This document shows, piece after piece, positions 25,540-42,279 of a stretch of DNA of 64,000 bases. The DNA is taken from the IMG/VR virus record IMGVR_UViG_2645727948_000011; one strand, 5' to 3'. The notes below the pieces were generated by a model. That model was not told where the DNA came from and did no database searches. It worked only from the letters and a program-made list of their open reading frames with translations. The stretch comes from a virus (taxonomy: Duplodnaviria; Heunggongvirae; Uroviricota; Caudoviricetes). The position numbers were made by a program, and so were the translations under genes. The first letter of the stretch is position 1. Every line of letters begins with the position of its first letter.

Positions 25540-25980
25540 ATGGCCACACTATCTGATACAATAAAACCGAATAAAACATATCTTGAGGCGGTACTCCGTA
25601 CAGCGTTGTTAGGAAAGACAGAAGACGAATACGTTGATTTCTTCCTGTCAGGGCTACGCGGGCGATTACTGAAAAATCCCCGCCTGTACCGCAGCTATGG
25701 TCCATACTGGCCGGAAATTAAAAAATTATTACTGGAGCGCGGTTATGGTAATTTCGGTCGTCTCGTTGACCGTGACGTTCGCAAAATTTACCGTTATGAC
25801 CGCCCGGCGCTAACACTCATAGCCGCGACGCTCTACAGCCAGGAGCGTTTTGATAATGGTCAGATATACTCAGCCTGGCATTTACTGCCAGTGCCTGAAG
25901 AGGTTGACGACCAGGACTATGAGTTTGAGTCTTACGATTTGGAAGTTGAAGCCTTGGCACAGGCTGGAGAGAAAACTTGA
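25540..25980 (+). CDS. ulx: Ulx-like protein
   Basis: 146 aa between darB and lxc. Confidence 0.45.
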   Translation: MATLSDTIKPNKTYLEAVLRTALLGKTEDEYVDFFLSGLRGRLLKNPRLYRSYGPYWPEIKKLLLERGYGNFGRLVDRDVRKIYRYDRPALTLIAATLYSQERFDNGQIYSAWHLLPVPEEVDDQDYEFESYDLEVEALAQAGEKT

Positions 25981-26225
25981 AAAAGCGATACTACACAGTA
26001 AAGCATGGGACGCTACGAGCATTACAAGAGTTTGCTGACAAGCATAACGTTGAGGTGCGCAGGGAAGGGGGAAGTAAAGCTCTGCGCATGTACCGTCCGG
26101 ACGGAAAATGGCGGACGGTCGTCGATTTCAAAACTAACAGCGTTCCCCAGGGCGTCCGCGACCGGGCATTCGAGGAATGGGAGCAGATCATCATAGATAA
26201 CGCATTGCTCCTGAATGCTGATTAA
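25977..26225 (+). CDS. lxc: Lxc/Bof-like C1 co-repressor
   Basis: 82-aa ORF, size and position as P1 bof/lxc. Confidence 0.45.
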   Translation: MKKRYYTVKHGTLRALQEFADKHNVEVRREGGSKALRMYRPDGKWRTVVDFKTNSVPQGVRDRAFEEWEQIIIDNALLLNAD

Positions 26226-26230
26226 GAACT

Positions 26231-26257
26231 CTCCGGCCTAGGGAGATTAGGCCGGAG
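26231..26257. terminator. Hairpin between convergent lxc and the SIR2-like gene
   Basis: CTCCGGCC...GGCCGGAG 8-bp stem. Confidence 0.45.
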
Positions 26258-26266
26258 ATAAATATA

Positions 26267-27571
26267 CTATATAAACTTAGATATAATATCGTGAATCTGT
26301 TGTAGCGGGATTTCTTCCATCTTACTCTTAATAAGAGAGCGGTTAGATGCTGTCAGTGAAGGCCATTTTGTTTTCCAGGCTAGATATGCTCGCCATGAGT
26401 AGCCTGTTTCGTAAGGTTTATTCATATAAGTCATTGAGTGTTCAACCGCATGTATGTATTTTTTCTCAAAGTTGGTTCCTTTTACTTCAAATAAACTACC
26501 GAAATAAATAAGCCATTTTGCCAGGTGTTCATACTGCTCCCATGCGCCAGACTCTTTAGTAAGATCTATTTTTTTATCTATTATATCACAAAAAACATTT
26601 AATACCTTTTCATCATTCCAGCTATATCCAGATGATGAAATGGAGGAAATGATATGATAAAAAGAATCCTCTAACTTCAAGAACTCTATTTTATACTCTC
26701 TTCCGTTTTTTATTACCGATTTGATTGAGTGCCTCAATTTGTCTTTTATTTTTTTTGCTTCTGGAATTTTCTTGTTAAGTTTTCTAAAGAAATCAGACAC
26801 CTCTGTTTTATCTATAACCCTAATCCCAAAGCAGGAAAAATAGTAATCTTTAATAGGTTGCAATAGTTTCCCTCGGGAAATAAGGAAAATATTGGAGGAC
26901 ATTACGTTGTCCCGTGAAAATACCTTATATTCATTTATAATCGCCTTGAGGTTCGCGTCACTTAGAGAATAGCCAAGAATAACAATAGTGTTTTCATGTA
27001 GAACTGTGCTTAGTTTATTTGAAAAGTAAGAATTACCATTTATAAATCTGAAATAATCCTCGCTAGTAACAACCATATCTGATGGGGAGTCTATAGAGCC
27101 GTGAACATGGTAGACTTTAACCTCACAATTATATTTTGGAATTGGCAGGCCGGGGGTGATTGTACACGTTCGATTCTCTCCAGCCAGTTTTTCTGCTAAC
27201 TTGTCATAATTTGTCGTAATTACTTTAAATGTGTTTTCTTTGAAAAAGTCTTGAATATATTCAATTGATGGATCAAGTTCGATTGAGGCTATGATTTTCT
27301 CAATCTCCTGGTAAATATTTTTCCCCGAAAGTATAAATTTTAGTGCAATAACCTGAGCAGCCTCTTCAAGGCTAAGGTCTTTTGCTTTTCCATCAGGAAA
27401 TAATTCCTCTTTGAGTGAGTCACCATCCTTCAATAAACCGCACAGTTGCTCCAATAAAGATTGCCAACTTGGGGCTTTATCATCAGAAACAGCCTTTGAA
27501 AATCCAGTGCCTGTAAGAAAGCACAGCCTATGTGTAGCTGCTGCATAGGCAATTTCTATATACTCGCTCAT
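26267..27571 (-). CDS. SIR2-like (sirtuin-fold) protein with an uncharacterised helical C-terminal domain; candidate defence NADase
   Basis: Motifs FLTGTGFS, ITTNYD, YHVHGSI, ILGYSLSD; GGAG RBS 8 nt upstream; markedly AT-rich versus neighbours; lies where P1 has res/mod. Confidence 0.75.
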   Translation of the reverse strand: MSEYIEIAYAAATHRLCFLTGTGFSKAVSDDKAPSWQSLLEQLCGLLKDGDSLKEELFPDGKAKDLSLEEAAQVIALKFILSGKNIYQEIEKIIASIELDPSIEYIQDFFKENTFKVITTNYDKLAEKLAGENRTCTITPGLPIPKYNCEVKVYHVHGSIDSPSDMVVTSEDYFRFINGNSYFSNKLSTVLHENTIVILGYSLSDANLKAIINEYKVFSRDNVMSSNIFLISRGKLLQPIKDYYFSCFGIRVIDKTEVSDFFRKLNKKIPEAKKIKDKLRHSIKSVIKNGREYKIEFLKLEDSFYHIISSISSSGYSWNDEKVLNVFCDIIDKKIDLTKESGAWEQYEHLAKWLIYFGSLFEVKGTNFEKKYIHAVEHSMTYMNKPYETGYSWRAYLAWKTKWPSLTASNRSLIKSKMEEIPLQQIHDIISKFI

Positions 27572-27627
27572 TACTTACTCCATTTACTTATAGTTCTACG
27601 GAGAAGTATACCCTAATGCATTGACGT

Positions 27628-28269
27628 TTATAGATAATTTCCTTTTCCTGTTAATACTCCCTTAGGCACCTGTTTTTGTGCCAGCGTTTGGGTTCCGCGA
27701 ATTATGTTAATCAGAGGGCTTAGTAACGATGGTTCCTGGCGTGCCTCAACTTCTCCAGCCATTGCCCTGATGTAGTCTGCGCTGGCAACGTTGTTGTATT
27801 CCGTCGCAAAGCAACATAGTAACGTCAGAACATGCTCTGTCGTTATTTCGCTCCAGTTGATGTTGAAAAATTCATCGCCTTTTTTGTCGTGTTCGGAATC
27901 GAAGATGCTTTGGTGGAGGATGTATTTGCCGGATTCTTTGCGCGGTAACTTGATCGCTTTCTGGCGTTCCAATTCCTTGTAAATCTGCATTGCTTCAATC
28001 AGTACCGGCCTGCCGTTCATAAAGGGATCTCGCAACCTTACACGCTGGCCAACTCGACCAGTAATAAAGCTGTTTTCCTCTTCCACCAGCACGATAAAAC
28101 CCTTTTCCTCTTTTTCTCGCAATTCGCGCAGCAGCTGGAGTTCCATGTCGCGGCGGCGTTCAGGGTAGCTGGTCCGCTCAGCCATTATCAGCTCATTGTT
28201 GATCCATGCAGCAGTCATTGACGCCGGTTTGCCGACGCTCATTGAAACAACGCATATTTTCTTATCCAT
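27628..28269 (-). CDS. mat: Mat-like particle maturation protein
   Basis: P1 synteny between ref and the R-M slot; ATG at 28269. Confidence 0.4.
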   Translation of the reverse strand: MDKKICVVSMSVGKPASMTAAWINNELIMAERTSYPERRRDMELQLLRELREKEEKGFIVLVEEENSFITGRVGQRVRLRDPFMNGRPVLIEAMQIYKELERQKAIKLPRKESGKYILHQSIFDSEHDKKGDEFFNINWSEITTEHVLTLLCCFATEYNNVASADYIRAMAGEVEARQEPSLLSPLINIIRGTQTLAQKQVPKGVLTGKGNYL

Positions 28270-28456
28270 AGCGCCCCACAAAAAAGAAAAGCCACCAGCG
28301 GCGGCTTAGCAATACAACTGAAGGTAGCGCCCGGTACTCAGACTGTGCCGTCCATGGAATATTTGAAAAGGGATCCATCCGTACCGGGCGTGTGATGATT
28401 CTGACTGAAGTCACTTGTCAGTTGTCAATTATTTCAGATTAAAAATAATATATTTA

Positions 28457-29017
28457 TTAGTGCATGATGTTTGCCATCTCATAGGCGTCAGCCAGCAACT
28501 CCATCTCTGACTTGTTCAGCAAGGTGAATTCTTTCTTGCCTCCAACCACACCATCGGCATGAACAGGGACCAGCCAAGGGTATTTTTCTCTTACTTCAGC
28601 CGGTGCTGCATGCTGGTGGTGCCATCTGCAAAGGGGCAATTGCTTTTTGTGACAACCCGGCGCGGTACGACCGGAGATATGGTGCAGAGACACCTCTTCA
28701 GATATTACTCCATGCATGTAGCAGGCAATGCAGGGGAGAGCGCCAAGAGCATTGGCGATGCGCCGTTCCTCCGCCGTTGGTGTTCTCCCCTTCAAGCCAC
28801 GAGATTTTATTTTTACCGCGCTTTTCCGCGTTTTGCTGGCTGGTGGGCGCTCTTTCTGTTTAGCGATACGGCGGTCGATAGTATCCCGCATTTTCTGATA
28901 TTGCGATTCTCGCCAGGCGGGGTCAGCCAACTTTTCCCGTTGCCGAGCGATCGCTCGTTCTCTGGCTGCCTTCTGCCACTCGCGGCGCTGTTCAATTTTT
29001 TGTTCGATTGTTTTCAT
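28457..29017 (-). CDS. ref: Ref HNH endonuclease
   Basis: Start MKTIEQK gives 186 aa; HNH-like Cys/His cluster CIACYMHG...HHISGR...CRWHH; C1 operator upstream. Confidence 0.8.
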   Translation of the reverse strand: MKTIEQKIEQRREWQKAARERAIARQREKLADPAWRESQYQKMRDTIDRRIAKQKERPPASKTRKSAVKIKSRGLKGRTPTAEERRIANALGALPCIACYMHGVISEEVSLHHISGRTAPGCHKKQLPLCRWHHQHAAPAEVREKYPWLVPVHADGVVGGKKEFTLLNKSEMELLADAYEMANIMH

Positions 29018-29264: not shown

Positions 29265-29576
29265 TTATTTCATCATGGAAGCTGTTAACGCTTTGGACCT
29301 TGCTGAACTGATTGAAAGGACATTGTTAACCTTACCCAAGAGTTCGCCAAACTCAGACATCACTTTAGCAAAACCGCGCCGTGCTTCTTCCTCGGTGGCA
29401 TTCATCACGAAATGTTCAGCACTACGCATACTTTTGACAGGAAACGCAACGGATATTGAGTCAATATCAGGCATTCTATCGTTCAGCTTTACAGTGACAA
29501 TGACGGCTGGCGACTGAATATTGGTGCTTACAGACAGCACTACATATTTTCCGTCGATGTTGAAATCCTTCCTCAT
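29265..29576 (-). CDS. cra: Cra-like protein
   Basis: 103-aa ORF directly downstream of cre, as in P1. Confidence 0.45.
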   Translation of the reverse strand: MRKDFNIDGKYVVLSVSTNIQSPAVIVTVKLNDRMPDIDSISVAFPVKSMRSAEHFVMNATEEEARRGFAKVMSEFGELLGKVNNVLSISSARSKALTASMMK

Positions 29577-30665: not shown

Positions 30666-30887
30666 TCAGATAATGGTTTTAAGTAAAGTGTACAGGATCG
30701 GCTCTGCCTTTACCTGTTTATGGTTCTCGTCATAGAAACGCCAGCGACCACGCGTGCGTTCTATTTTCTCTTCACCGCGCGATAATGACAGTTGACAACT
30801 ATCACGATCAAACCCTTTTGCCCGCCAGTAACCACGGTTTTTCTCAAGCTCAATATGAGTGGACACTTTAGCAGCTGAATATCCCAT
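30666..30887 (-). CDS. Hypothetical small protein between loxP and cre
   Basis: 73-aa ORF with GAGGTGA RBS 6 nt upstream of ATG. Confidence 0.3.
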   Translation of the reverse strand: MGYSAAKVSTHIELEKNRGYWRAKGFDRDSCQLSLSRGEEKIERTRGRWRFYDENHKQVKAEPILYTLLKTII

Positions 30888-39338: not shown

Positions 39339-39972
39339 GGCCCGCCTCATGCTTATCAGCCACCAGCGGCAATAAAGCCCTGGCCATCTTATGAACCAAT
39401 AGTGCATCAATAATGCCAAGCGTATGCCCCGGCTTAATGTTTAATGCCGCCTCAAGGTGACACCTTTCCAGGCCACTTTTCTCGGCTTGTTTATGATGAT
39501 CTGGCGTAATAACGTCGCCCAAAACACGGCTAATTTTTTCTCGTAATTGCTGGGTGCCAGCACACTTGATCGCTGTATCGTGGATGCGGTTAACCAGTTC
39601 GCGATAAACATGCGGCTTAATTCGGATACGTTCACCGGTGACGCCCTTTCCTGGCGCTGGCACCGAACTATCCGGAATATCCGGATAGTTGCCAGCCTCG
39701 TAAGCTACCCGCAGCCAGTGCATGAATGTTTCAGTGGACACACAACCACAGTCCACATCGATTTTCCCGCGTTGCTGTTCCAGCCAATGCTCAAAATTCA
39801 ATCTACACGTATTACTTTCATGTTGCTCTTTTTGTCTCAAGGCCAGCATCTGCTGGGCTATTTCCAATACTTCATCTGCCGTATATCCAGCACCGTGACC
39901 ATACATTTCGATACGGGAAATAATCTCTGATATACGCTCTTCAGTGATTCTGGTCATTTCTTTTTGCGCCAT
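39322..39972 (-). CDS. Hypothetical protein
   Basis: 216-aa ORF. Confidence 0.5.
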   Translation of the reverse strand: MAQKEMTRITEERISEIISRIEMYGHGAGYTADEVLEIAQQMLALRQKEQHESNTCRLNFEHWLEQQRGKIDVDCGCVSTETFMHWLRVAYEAGNYPDIPDSSVPAPGKGVTGERIRIKPHVYRELVNRIHDTAIKCAGTQQLREKISRVLGDVITPDHHKQAEKSGLERCHLEAALNIKPGHTLGIIDALLVHKMARALLPLVADKHEAGHANES

Positions 39973-40328
39973 TTCTTTTCACATTCCTTAGTCCATTTTT
40001 CAATGTTCATTTTGGCAATATCAGTCATTCCATCACCTAAGAAATACTTTTTCCGGTATGTCTTGCACTTAAACCACACTACAACAGCCACCAGCCAGAA
40101 AATAAAAGGCCATACAGCAATACCAACGACAGCCGCGATAAAGCCCAATAGCCATAAATGAAGCTCTCCAACTTCTGTTTCCGGCAATATTCTTAAAGAA
40201 TTAAACAGCAGGCTGAACGAATGGTCGTATGCATTGGCAGTATAAGACATGCAATCCATATAATTAAAGTCATAGCCTGCGGCTGCCGCCCATAATGGGC
40301 GGTCAAGAAAATGTTTTAGTGTCATCAT
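39954..40328 (-). CDS. Hypothetical membrane protein
   Basis: Two hydrophobic helices, basic tail. Confidence 0.45.
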   Translation of the reverse strand: MMTLKHFLDRPLWAAAAGYDFNYMDCMSYTANAYDHSFSLLFNSLRILPETEVGELHLWLLGFIAAVVGIAVWPFIFWLVAVVVWFKCKTYRKKYFLGDGMTDIAKMNIEKWTKECEKKWRKKK

Positions 40329-40334
40329 ATAAAT

Positions 40335-40715
40335 TTAAGGTTCAGACCAGTTATCTTCAATAGCAATGCTTAATCTTTGTAGCCATTCTGCTAATTTCAG
40401 CATTGCTTCTCTTTCGCTTAAACCACGAGGAAAATCATCAAGCGAAATTGTTGGCTTGAAGCCCCCGTAATTATCCATTTCAACAGTCAGATTTTGCTCC
40501 AGCACGGTATTCCTTACGCGGCTATTGTGCCGAAGCAAATATACTGAACGTGATTTATTGGTTTTATGGTCAAACTGATATTCGGTAAGTATCATCTGGC
40601 TTTTGCCATGACTATTACCTCTCCACATACTTACCTCACTTAATAAAACAACTCCATACGTAGTTGATGATTCTCCCCCACGTAATATAAATATGCACTC
40701 CAGCAGAAAAACCAA
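40335..40715 (-). CDS. Hypothetical protein
   Basis: 126-aa ORF. Confidence 0.4.
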   Translation of the reverse strand: MVFLLECIFILRGGESSTTYGVVLLSEVSMWRGNSHGKSQMILTEYQFDHKTNKSRSVYLLRHNSRVRNTVLEQNLTVEMDNYGGFKPTISLDDFPRGLSEREAMLKLAEWLQRLSIAIEDNWSEP

Positions 40716-40806
40716 AACCTACAATTACTGAAAAAATCAAAACATTTACTTTTGACATTATAAATTTTCTCTCGGTGTCGTAGGTGATAGCACCATAATT
40801 GATAAT

Positions 40807-41058
40807 TTAGTGAGTTAGCAGTTCCATTTTTTGGATGATTTCCGCATGAGCATCATCGTTATCAACACTTAACTCGTTTAATGCCTCTCGCACCACATCA
40901 ACTTCTTCTGGTTGGAAGAAATCATCTCGGTAGTCACCAAATAGAACCGAAACAAGCCTGCCACCAGCAACATCAAGATTGGCGCTAACAGGTGGCTCTT
41001 TGCCATCCTCAAATTCGACTACAAAAGTTATTTTTCCCATCGTTACCACCAGCGACAA
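40807..41058 (-). CDS. Hypothetical acidic protein
   Basis: 83-aa ORF. Confidence 0.4.
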   Translation of the reverse strand: MSLVVTMGKITFVVEFEDGKEPPVSANLDVAGGRLVSVLFGDYRDDFFQPEEVDVVREALNELSVDNDDAHAEIIQKMELLTH

Positions 41059-41125
41059 ATTGAATACAAACCCAGTGCTGCCGCCATCACAATTCCTACC
41101 GTTGCGAATGCTTCAGGCCAGCTCA

Positions 41126-41386
41126 TTATCTCACCTCCAGTCTCCATACCGCCTGACCAATCCGGCTGGCATGGGTATCTTTGGATACTGTTCCGTCTTT
41201 AGCCATCTCCATAAGAATTTTGCGCAAATCTGCCGAACGCCATTCTTCATCAGGAAATTCCTTCTCCATTGCCAACCGCAGATTCCAGGTTGCCATCCTG
41301 AATGGATATTCCCCGCCGAGAGCTTTATCTTGCAGGGCAGCCCGGGAACGCATCACCTGCAAAACCTTCTCTTTTACATTCATCAT
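41126..41386 (-). CDS. Hypothetical protein
   Basis: ATG overlaps upstream stop (ATGA). Confidence 0.45.
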   Translation of the reverse strand: MMNVKEKVLQVMRSRAALQDKALGGEYPFRMATWNLRLAMEKEFPDEEWRSADLRKILMEMAKDGTVSKDTHASRIGQAVWRLEVR

Positions 41387-42279
41387 TTCGCCTCCTGCGG
41401 CGGTTCTGGTAGCGGCATCCAGTGTGACGGTTTCCACGACGCACCAGGAATTATCCAACCATCATTAGCGTCAGGATACCCCGGTATGTAAGTCGCCCAT
41501 TTCATTCGCCAGTCACCTTTCCTATCAAACTCCCTGGCAACAAGAACGGCTGTTTTGCTATCCGGCATTCGCTCACTACAGCTTATCCAACCATCCGGAG
41601 TTACCGGAACTTGCGGAATGGCTGTCTGCTCTCGAACGTCATTAGGCGCTATAGGTTCTGCTGCCAACTGACTGGCATATTTGTTAATGGTAACGATAAG
41701 CTCTTGCTCAGCCTCATCCAGACAATCACCGATACCTCGCCTGTCACCGTCAAAATCATCGAAATCGGCACGAATCTTGGCAACCTTCAAGATTGCGGAC
41801 AACACCTCACTAGGAATTACCGGATAGTTGGTTGACGTTTCCGCGATTTCCCGAAAATTATTGGTTGACGAATTCTTGCTTTCCCGAAAGTTTCCGGACT
41901 GAAGCATGGCGGTGCGGCAGGCGTTCCATATTTCGGCAGCAATATCGCGCTCGCTATCGGTTAATTTGTACGTGGAAACATAGCCAGAGAGCATTTCTAC
42001 GTTTTCCGGAGTTGCTTCTTCCGGCACTACCGGCGCTGGCGGGGCGATGCGTCCAAGCAACTTATTTACCTCTTTCGCCATCGCGTCATATTTATCTAAA
42101 TGGCGATTAGCTTCTAAGCAGACTCGGCGCATCTGATCTGAGTTAACTCGTTTAACTGGATCTGCTTCCAGCGATGCCAGCGCAATCCGTGCCAGTTCCA
42201 TTTGTTCACCACGGGTAAGCCCGTTTTCAAGCGGATTTTTAATGAACAATTCAATACGTTCTTTGGTAATAGTGGTCAT
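41383..42279 (-). CDS. Hypothetical protein with C-terminal GWISCSERMP...W.PLP (DUF551-like) motif
   Basis: 298-aa ORF. Confidence 0.5.
   Translation of the reverse strand: MTTITKERIELFIKNPLENGLTRGEQMELARIALASLEADPVKRVNSDQMRRVCLEANRHLDKYDAMAKEVNKLLGRIAPPAPVVPEEATPENVEMLSGYVSTYKLTDSERDIAAEIWNACRTAMLQSGNFRESKNSSTNNFREIAETSTNYPVIPSEVLSAILKVAKIRADFDDFDGDRRGIGDCLDEAEQELIVTINKYASQLAAEPIAPNDVREQTAIPQVPVTPDGWISCSERMPDSKTAVLVAREFDRKGDWRMKWATYIPGYPDANDGWIIPGASWKPSHWMPLPEPPQEAK

Follow-up and report, generated by a model that had tools for sequence, protein, structure and literature searches.

What does a lone SIR2 gene do in the cargo slot of a P1-type phage-plasmid? The 64,000-nucleotide stretch of IMG/VR virus record IMGVR_UViG_2645727948_000011 analysed here (the window) has a P1 backbone and carries, between the genes mat and lxc, an AT-rich gene for a SIR2-family protein of 434 amino acids (aa); P1 itself (NC_005856) holds res and mod (EcoP1I) in this interval. 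We consider it moderately likely that the product is a miniature DSR-like single-protein sensor-effector against phages (or other mobile elements), acting through depletion of nicotinamide adenine dinucleotide (NAD+) and abortive infection. A first-pass annotation, made from the sequence by eye, had put the gene forward as a defence candidate, and this interpretation was supported by the analysis.

The open reading frame (ORF) is a real gene. Its product is identical to WP_000006034.1, labelled 'SIR2 family protein' in NZ_CP033848, and all four motifs that had been read as hallmarks of the sirtuin fold are in the translation (FLTGTGFS, residues 18-25; ITTNYD, 117-123; HVHGS, 155-159; ILGYSLSD, 198-205). 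The gene is also, as had been claimed, more AT-rich than its flanks, with a fractional GC content of 0.31-0.37 against about 0.50, and is the most AT-rich kilobase of the whole 64 kb. A chance ORF is excluded because the frame runs for 1.3 kb in DNA of 35% GC, has hundreds of full-length homologs and shows a ratio of nonsynonymous to synonymous substitution rates (dN/dS) of 0.12 between the window allele and that of pKBN10P04869B, which is 92.5% identical and lies in the same slot and orientation. The gene is under purifying selection.

The N-terminal half of the protein is a SIR2 domain. Pfam SIR2_2 (PF13289) matched residues 117-245 with E=1.6e-23 and 83.8 bits against a cut-off of 24.5, and an AlphaFold2 (AF2) model built from 45 sequences, with a predicted local distance difference test score (pLDDT) of 85 and a predicted template-modelling score (pTM) of 0.83, showed strands and helices alternating in this domain at a pLDDT of about 90. 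Mean column identity was 0.85 across residues 116-253. The two residues proposed in the first-pass annotation as catalytic, N121 and H157, are intact and invariant in the 45 homologs; they align with the pair whose replacement (N133A/H171A) provided the catalytic-dead control in a structural study of the defence effector DSR2 (PMC10973363). A helical lid-like insert is the domain's most variable part and aligns to the lid of DSR2, residues 56-111 (PMC10973363), which in that protein modulates NADase activity. Between the window allele and that of pKBN10P04869B, 8 of the 30 aa changes fall in lid residues 88-112 (27236-27310), where 1.7 would be expected; this interval was picked post hoc and its p-value is optimistic.

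The domain is not that of a canonical deacylase, since a Pfam search of the full protein gave no match to the canonical sirtuin family PF02146 at E<=1 and the six cysteines, which form no CxxC pairs, leave it without a Cys4 zinc module. Foldseek against the PDB matched the SIR2 domains of DSR2, ThsA and KomC (E ~1e-10 to 1e-8), and the query-normalised template-modelling score (TMq) was about 0.47 for full-length DSR2 and SIR2-only chains alike, so that only the N-terminal half superposes. In RefSeq the identical gene (NZ_CP033848 29500-30804) formerly had the name 'SIR2 family protein' and now has 'SIR2 family NAD-dependent protein deacylase'; because the protein lacks the zinc module and groups with defence NADases, the 'deacylase' name is probably misleading. 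The SIR2 domain is instead predicted to be an NAD+ glycohydrolase.

The C-terminal half, in which no motif had been recognised in the first reading, was predicted to be all-helical, with the bundle of the AF2 model extending to residue 432, and Pfam matched no family there. It gave no sequence or fold match to SLOG, CARF, SAVED, DSR2's C-terminal domain (CTD), PDC-S25 or any PDB entry; ThsA profiles matched the SIR2 part only, in agreement with the earlier view that no SLOG signature was present. When 1.84 billion representative proteins were searched exhaustively with phmmer, just 75 relatives of the domain emerged; apart from obvious fragments, these are proteins of ~430-480 aa in which the domain has the same position, and SIR2_2 was present at the N terminus of 10 of the 10 most distant full-length relatives checked. 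As the domain was found only fused to SIR2, and always at the same position, it is private to this architecture and obligately coupled to SIR2. Its mean column identity was 0.69, with a peak of 0.83 at residues 341-360, and 19 residues within 293-434 are invariant, among them W344, Q346, Y347, W353, S379, M380, M383, G390, S392, W393, Y396, W399, W403, N410 and R411. A dedicated regulatory module would be expected to show this conservation and the SIR2-only fusion.

The gene stands alone. To 51 genome loci that carry a homolog we applied clustering of the 471 ORFs within five positions of SIR2; the top neighbour family occurred in 4 of the 51, at varying positions, and the 148 immediate neighbours included at most two members of any one Pfam or PADLOC family. 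That no neighbour recurs in 51 loci is strong evidence for a one-gene unit, as the first-pass annotation had it, and its statement that no TIR, HerA, Argonaute or STAND gene lies nearby was borne out within 9 kb on either side in the annotation of the identical plasmid region. We also considered a two-gene unit involving the small ORFs that flank homologs in Pseudoalteromonas, Halomonas, Marinobacter and others. These ORFs are dissimilar to each other and to mat, lxc and ulx, and the clustering, with no recurrent family, likewise ruled the idea out.

Homologs are widespread and their settings diverse. Full-length relatives at 50-61% identity occur in Vibrio, Halomonas, Pseudoalteromonas, Marinobacter, Pantoea, Klebsiella, Pseudomonas, Paracidovorax and on an E. 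coli chromosome; others are found in Alphaproteobacteria, Desulfobacter and Actinobacteria, so that homologs of ~50% identity span the Alpha-, Beta- and Gammaproteobacteria and the Actinobacteria, and a 32% relative was found in a Treponema metagenome-assembled genome. The E. coli chromosomal homolog is found in a lambdoid prophage, at the end with the integrase, and has a 200-bp upstream region of its own; such a position is typical for a moron expressed in lysogeny. A homolog from a metagenomic lineage adjoins an integrase fragment. The Marinobacter homolog sits beside a Type I restriction-modification (RM) system and GmrSD, and that of Halomonas within a cluster of HNH, DUF4145, HerA-like, FRG and AAA_16 genes that resembles a defence island; those of Pseudoalteromonas and Paracidovorax stand among ordinary chromosomal genes, outside any phage or plasmid. 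The evidence that associates homologs with defence islands is only anecdotal. At the Halomonas locus (L009, 10700-13667), a pair formed by a 401-aa protein, its family unknown, and a DUF87 (HerA-like) ATPase after it lies ~1.4 kb downstream of the homolog, surrounded by the HNH, DUF4145, FRG and AAA_16/TPR genes; this pair is probably an independent HerA-type system of the island and not a partner of SIR2.

In P1-type elements the gene behaves as mobile cargo. In blastn comparisons with seven P1-type loci, backbone homology stopped at 26221-26239, just beyond the lxc stop, and restarted at 27628, the mat stop codon, or in three loci at 27746-27760. These breaks define an insert of ~1.4 kb. RCS47, with an lxc-mat gap of only 39 bp, provides the empty-site reference, and as the leader ahead of SIR2 is absent from this phage, it is part of the cassette. 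The gene order is otherwise that of the P1 backbone, with darB-ulx-lxc on the plus strand followed by SIR2-mat-ref-c8-cre-cra on the minus strand. A hairpin directly beyond the SIR2 stop (predicted RNA fold -20.8 kcal/mol, z=-4.7) separates the convergent SIR2 and lxc, and a different hairpin is found at the same place in RCS47.

The cassette was found at nucleotide identity of at least 90% in 66 PLSDB plasmids of 92-119 kb from E. coli, E. fergusonii, Klebsiella and Salmonella, with the ORF intact and full length in 65 of them, and in 70 of 5,426 complete E. coli genomes. Since the ulx-lxc backbone marker was present in 699 plasmids and 699 genomes, ~10% of P1-type elements carry the cassette; P1-type elements themselves occur in ~13% of complete E. 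coli genomes. Among deposited phage genomes, megablast gave no match to the cassette, and tblastn found only SIR2-core matches, in unrelated Streptococcus and Mycolicibacterium phages.

The first-pass annotation had placed the gene in a restriction-modification slot. It does lie where P1 has res and mod, but the slot is not reserved for such systems. In 673R5 and SJ46 it holds a split RelA/SpoT-family pair jointly matching PADLOC PDC-S33 (toxSAS-like), in JL22 a PIN-domain protein whose tail is PDC-S34-like, in Ro157c2YLVW and OP279344 an AraC-type regulator with an EAL protein, and in MH422554 an unannotated 346-codon ORF. The lxc-mat interval is therefore a general cargo hotspot of P1-type elements and not exclusively a defence slot, with cargo that is often, not always, defensive or a candidate for defence.

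A GGAG ribosome-binding site is present at 27578-27581, 6 nt ahead of the SIR2 ATG, as had been claimed, whereas the plausible promoter claimed with it did not hold up: a sigma-70 consensus scan of the 56-bp leader found no site of at least 9/12. The leader candidates TTAGGG-18-TATAAG and CTATAA-17-TATACT were judged poor by eye; the claimed promoter is weak and was not adopted. The 56-bp interval between the co-oriented mat and SIR2 contains no terminator, and the region ahead of mat, annotated in P1 as Omat/Pmat/LPmat, has an operator for C1 together with two promoters, one of the sigma-70 type and one late. Read-through into SIR2 from these C1-controlled and late promoters is possible.

We propose the following model. 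The N-terminal SIR2 domain would be an NAD+ glycohydrolase that is inactive in uninfected cells, and the C-terminal helical domain would gate it; the likeliest way would be that it binds a cue of infection or promotes the oligomer formation on which SIR2 effectors depend. The enzyme, when triggered, would consume cellular NAD+, the metabolism of the infected cell would stop and with it the replication of the superinfecting phage. The P1-type phage-plasmid would keep the gene as exchangeable lxc-mat cargo that shields its lysogen from competitors. The nearest relatives by sequence and fold, ThsA, DSR2 and KomC, are all NAD-depleting defence effectors. The analysis establishes the layout of the domains, the conserved catalytic pair, the standalone state, purifying selection, mobility and the place in the slot; NADase activity, regulation or sensing by the C-terminal domain, abortive infection as the outcome and expression in lysogens are inferred.

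Several other accounts of the protein were weighed against this model. It could be a genuine NADase that confers nothing alone and is switched on by something encoded elsewhere, either a diffusible nucleotide signal, as in Thoeris and Kongming, or a partner complex, as for LmuA in Lamassu. KomC and ThsA, both signal-activated, are indeed among its nearest SIR2 relatives, the cluster formed by W344, Q346, Y347, W353, W393, Y396, W399, W403, N410 and R411 resembles a ligand pocket as much as a protein-binding surface, and pFR88, a related standalone SIR2, gave no validated phenotype when cloned alone. We nevertheless regard such an orphan effector as unlikely, for no partner recurs in the 51 genomes and a system with its partner in trans would be hard to keep through wide horizontal transfer; in addition, the C-terminal domain is not SLOG, CARF, SAVED or another known signal-binding fold. 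The LmuA profile (433 positions) is collinear with residues 20-219, but its match ends where the SIR2 domain ends and no SMC-like partner recurs, and the Lamassu reading was rejected on these grounds. It is somewhat less probable still that the protein acts NAD-dependently on other proteins, as a deacylase or ADP-ribosyltransferase, and tunes a host or phage protein without depleting NAD+. Its RefSeq name would suggest this, but is a generic family label; the SIR2 fold and NAD pocket are intact and the helical domain could serve substrate recognition, yet PF02146 and the Cys4 zinc module are both missing, the close relatives by sequence and fold are all defence NADases and none a deacylase, and the gene behaves as sporadic, horizontally transferred cargo, not as a conserved regulator.

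The cassette might alternatively serve the element itself, as an addiction or competition module that penalises plasmid loss or excludes rival plasmids, or in the lytic growth of P1. Its place 56 bp 3' of mat, co-oriented and with no terminator between, downstream of an Omat/Pmat/LPmat region that is 98% conserved, would suit such a role, as would the anti-restriction functions of the neighbours darB and ulx; the P1 resident of the slot, a Type III RM system, is moreover itself a selfish module of the poison-antidote type (a general point, PMC10879196). An NADase active in its carrier's own lytic cycle would, however, damage P1, no antitoxin-like partner is present, the homologs of Pseudoalteromonas and Paracidovorax reside in chromosomes off any phage or plasmid, and the E. 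coli prophage homolog has the integrase-end position and separate upstream region typical of a lysogeny-expressed moron. We give this account little credence, about as little as that of a protein-modifying enzyme. A decaying or inactive remnant with no current function would explain the lack of a strong promoter in the leader, but is very improbable given an ORF intact in 65 of 66 plasmids, a dN/dS of 0.12 and catalytic residues and a C-terminal domain conserved across phyla.

The sensor-effector model has weaknesses of its own, and the following observations weigh against it. The C-terminal domain is conserved nearly as much as the enzyme domain. Sensors of rapidly changing phage proteins are not usually conserved to this degree, and a role with a small molecule, a nucleic acid or in self-assembly fits this conservation equally well. 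With no good promoter in the leader and mat promoters that are C1-repressed or late, expression of SIR2 in the lysogen, on which a role in defence depends, is unproven. These two points, C-terminal conservation and the poor promoter, sit least easily with the model. Neighbourhoods elsewhere are mixed and include many housekeeping genes; the nearest tested compact single-gene SIR2, pFR88, is listed as tested but not validated (PMC9122126); and in the open-access literature we found no paper naming WP_000006034 or describing the family.

A bolder form of the same model, which we hold only tentatively and think rather doubtful, is that the protein would be the first of a new named defence family and the smallest SIR2 sensor-effector that is complete in itself, with the helical domain as a novel type of sensor for infection. 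This domain has an aromatic and polar cluster that is near-invariant across phyla, and for that reason its target may be a small molecule that is conserved, a feature of nucleic acids or a phage component that is conserved. Sensing in such a family may then differ from that of DSR2, which recognises a fast-evolving structural protein, and expression could be coupled to the C1 and late circuit of P1.

Table 1. Coordinates of the SIR2 gene, its domains, its cassette and the adjoining P1-type genes in the window
Feature	Position	Strand	Remark
SIR2-family ORF, complete, 434 aa plus TAG stop at 26267-26269	26267..27571	-	ATG start
N-terminal SIR2 (SIR2_2) domain, residues 1-253, Rossmann-type core, Gly loop TGTGFS	26813..27571	-	
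Helical lid-like insert, residues 50-112	27236..27424	-	Helices 50-57, 68-81, 86-95 and 104-112 (AF2 model)
N121 codon (TTNYD), candidate catalytic Asn	27209..27211	-	Aligns with DSR2 N133 and ThsA TTNYD
H157 codon (HVHGS), candidate catalytic His	27101..27103	-	Aligns with DSR2 H171
C-terminal domain, residues 254-434: linker helix 258-289 and helical bundle/solenoid	26270..26812	-	
Cassette leader, 56 bp, mat stop to SIR2 ATG	27572..27627	-	GGAG ribosome-binding site inside
Intrinsic-terminator-like hairpin, 11-bp stem and 7-nt loop, directly 3' of SIR2 stop	26230..26258	-	
Whole AT-rich inserted cassette (terminator, ORF and leader)	26240..27627	.	Left junction somewhere in 26222-26240
lxc (C1 modulator), backbone flank, convergent with SIR2	25977..26225	+	97% identical to P1 lxc
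mat (maturation control), directly upstream of SIR2, same strand	27628..28281	-	Start annotated in relatives: ATG at 28269
P1 Omat/Pmat/LPmat region upstream of mat, approximate bounds	28282..28466	-	98% identical to P1 2615-2870

The genes around the slot showed some variation of their own (Table 1). The 3' end of mat (27628-27760) is mosaic among P1-type phages, with homology restarting at 27628 in P1, RCS47 and 673R5, at 27623 in JL22 and at 27746-27760 in MH422554, OP279344 and Ro157c2YLVW. Recombination at the slot therefore extends into the mat coding sequence. At its other end, just upstream of the MDKK... start of mat, the window is without 2 bp (AG) that are found in P1 (28230-28480 compared with P1 2615-2870), and Mat is therefore 213-217 aa in the window and many relatives against the 251 aa annotated in P1 NC_005856; the JL22 annotation splits mat into two overlapping pieces. 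The 103-aa ORF between ref and cre (29265-29576) corresponds to P1 c8, which acts in lysogeny establishment, and not cra, whose equivalent is a 73-aa ORF past cre (30666-30887). Farther away, a second AT-rich patch at 39900-41400 (GC 0.396) contains small hypothetical minus-strand ORFs and is 95.6% identical to Salmonella phage SJ46 throughout; it partly matches more than 70 Shiga toxin-converting lambdoid phages, a sign that P1-type and lambdoid phages may have exchanged genes. Three tRNA genes, Met-CAT, Thr-TGT and Asn-GTT, lie on the minus strand at 59804-62033; P1 presumably carries a similar cluster.

E. coli, Salmonella and Klebsiella from clinical and livestock sources commonly carry P1-type phage-plasmids, which are relevant to phage therapy and to the spread of resistance genes. 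If the gene encodes an active NAD-depleting defence, it would form a compact and readily transferable barrier against therapeutic phages, and one that current annotation misses, as PADLOC and NCBIfam return only partial SIR2 matches and RefSeq the name 'deacylase'. SIR2 effectors with swapped sensor domains are in many cases already familiar to specialists; the model, if true, would extend the sensor domains of SIR2 effectors by a new one and, at 434 residues, offer a small system for studying the restraint and activation of a SIR2 NADase.

How, finally, does the protein relate to named systems? Sequence searches of PADLOC (2023 profiles), NCBIfam (2026 profiles) and the PDB gave no full-length match, and PDC-S25, ThsA, LmuA, Dsr2, Dsr1 and KomC were reached through the SIR2 core only. 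The searches that the first-pass annotation had called for, by profile and by structure (Pfam, PADLOC and Foldseek, with the full protein and the C-terminal part), thus returned SIR2-core matches and no named full-length system. In the literature, the SIR2 proteins mentioned by Vassallo 2022 and Rousset 2022 are either accompanied by HerA or STAND or are of the PDC-S25 type, namely pFR88; papers on DefensePredictor, metagenomic selection and E. coli defence islands held nothing relevant to the family, and 'PDC-S25' was named once in the open-access literature, in an unrelated paper.

Systems that need partners are the more distant comparisons. ThsA shares the TTNYD and HG motifs of the SIR2 NADase core (PADLOC ThsA, E=7e-18; PDB entries 7uxt and 6lhx, E ~1e-9 to 1e-8 by sequence), but its profile was matched at positions 107-215 of 478 only, its SLOG domain is not present in our protein, the C-terminus of which is all-helical, and the ThsB/TIR component of Thoeris was not found in the window or the 51 other loci. 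KomC of Kongming shares the SIR2 fold (E ~1e-5 by sequence and ~1e-8 by fold) and, at 264-278 aa, is without a C-terminal domain. LmuA of Lamassu was matched by its PADLOC profile at E=2e-13 over the region given above. SIR2-HerA, Lamassu and Kongming depend on HerA, LmuB/C and KomA/B, respectively, none of which recurs here. EcoP1I is a positional analogue and not a homolog: it is likewise cargo of the lxc-mat interval on the same backbone and protects the lysogen, but is a two-gene Type III system of ~6 kb, on the opposite strand relative to mat and unrelated in both sequence and mechanism.

PDC-S25 was the best PADLOC match (E=5e-24) and is likewise a compact single-gene SIR2_2 design of ~450-460 aa, but its profile was matched at positions 127-283 of 517 only (the profiles have 517 and 528 positions). 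Single-gene 'SIR2_2' cassettes are listed for the P4 hotspot, in a mobile element of E. coli, and one was cloned as pFR88 (Rousset et al. 2022, PMC9122126). We found the pFR88 protein to be a PDC-S25 member (positions 10-342 matched from a truncated sequence, E=4e-85), with 25% identity to the window protein in the SIR2 core only. Profile comparison by hhalign placed the homology with PDC-S25 at residues 17-235 only (probability 99.4%), the C-terminal domains being unrelated (0.4%). As the C-terminal modules differ, the window protein is a sister design to PDC-S25 and not a member.

The closest parallel in layout is DSR2 of Bacillus subtilis 29R (PDB 8k98, 8wkt and others), likewise a single protein with an N-terminal SIR2 domain built of a Rossmann core and a helical lid, followed in DSR2 by an alpha-helical CTD that binds the trigger (PMC10973363). 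Its catalytic pair N133/H171 is matched by N121/H157, and it was the best structural match to the full model (Foldseek E ~4e-11). DSR2 is, however, much larger, with 1005 residues against 434, and its CTD has no detectable similarity to the 180-residue C-terminal domain here; the NCBIfam equivalog for Dsr2 (NF041819) scored 30.6 bits against a cut-off of 1400, at residues 117-212 only, and that for DSR1 (NF041818) 21.2 bits against 1400. What the window protein shares with the DSR type is the layout, namely a standalone gene, an N-terminal SIR2 domain and an obligately fused, conserved non-catalytic C-terminal domain. The suggestion that it might represent an undescribed type therefore stands in so far as no named system matches it over its full length, but not in the sense of a categorically new system: it is probably a new family, built on the design of a SIR2 domain with a private C-terminal sensor that DSR, ThsA and PDC-S25 have already established.

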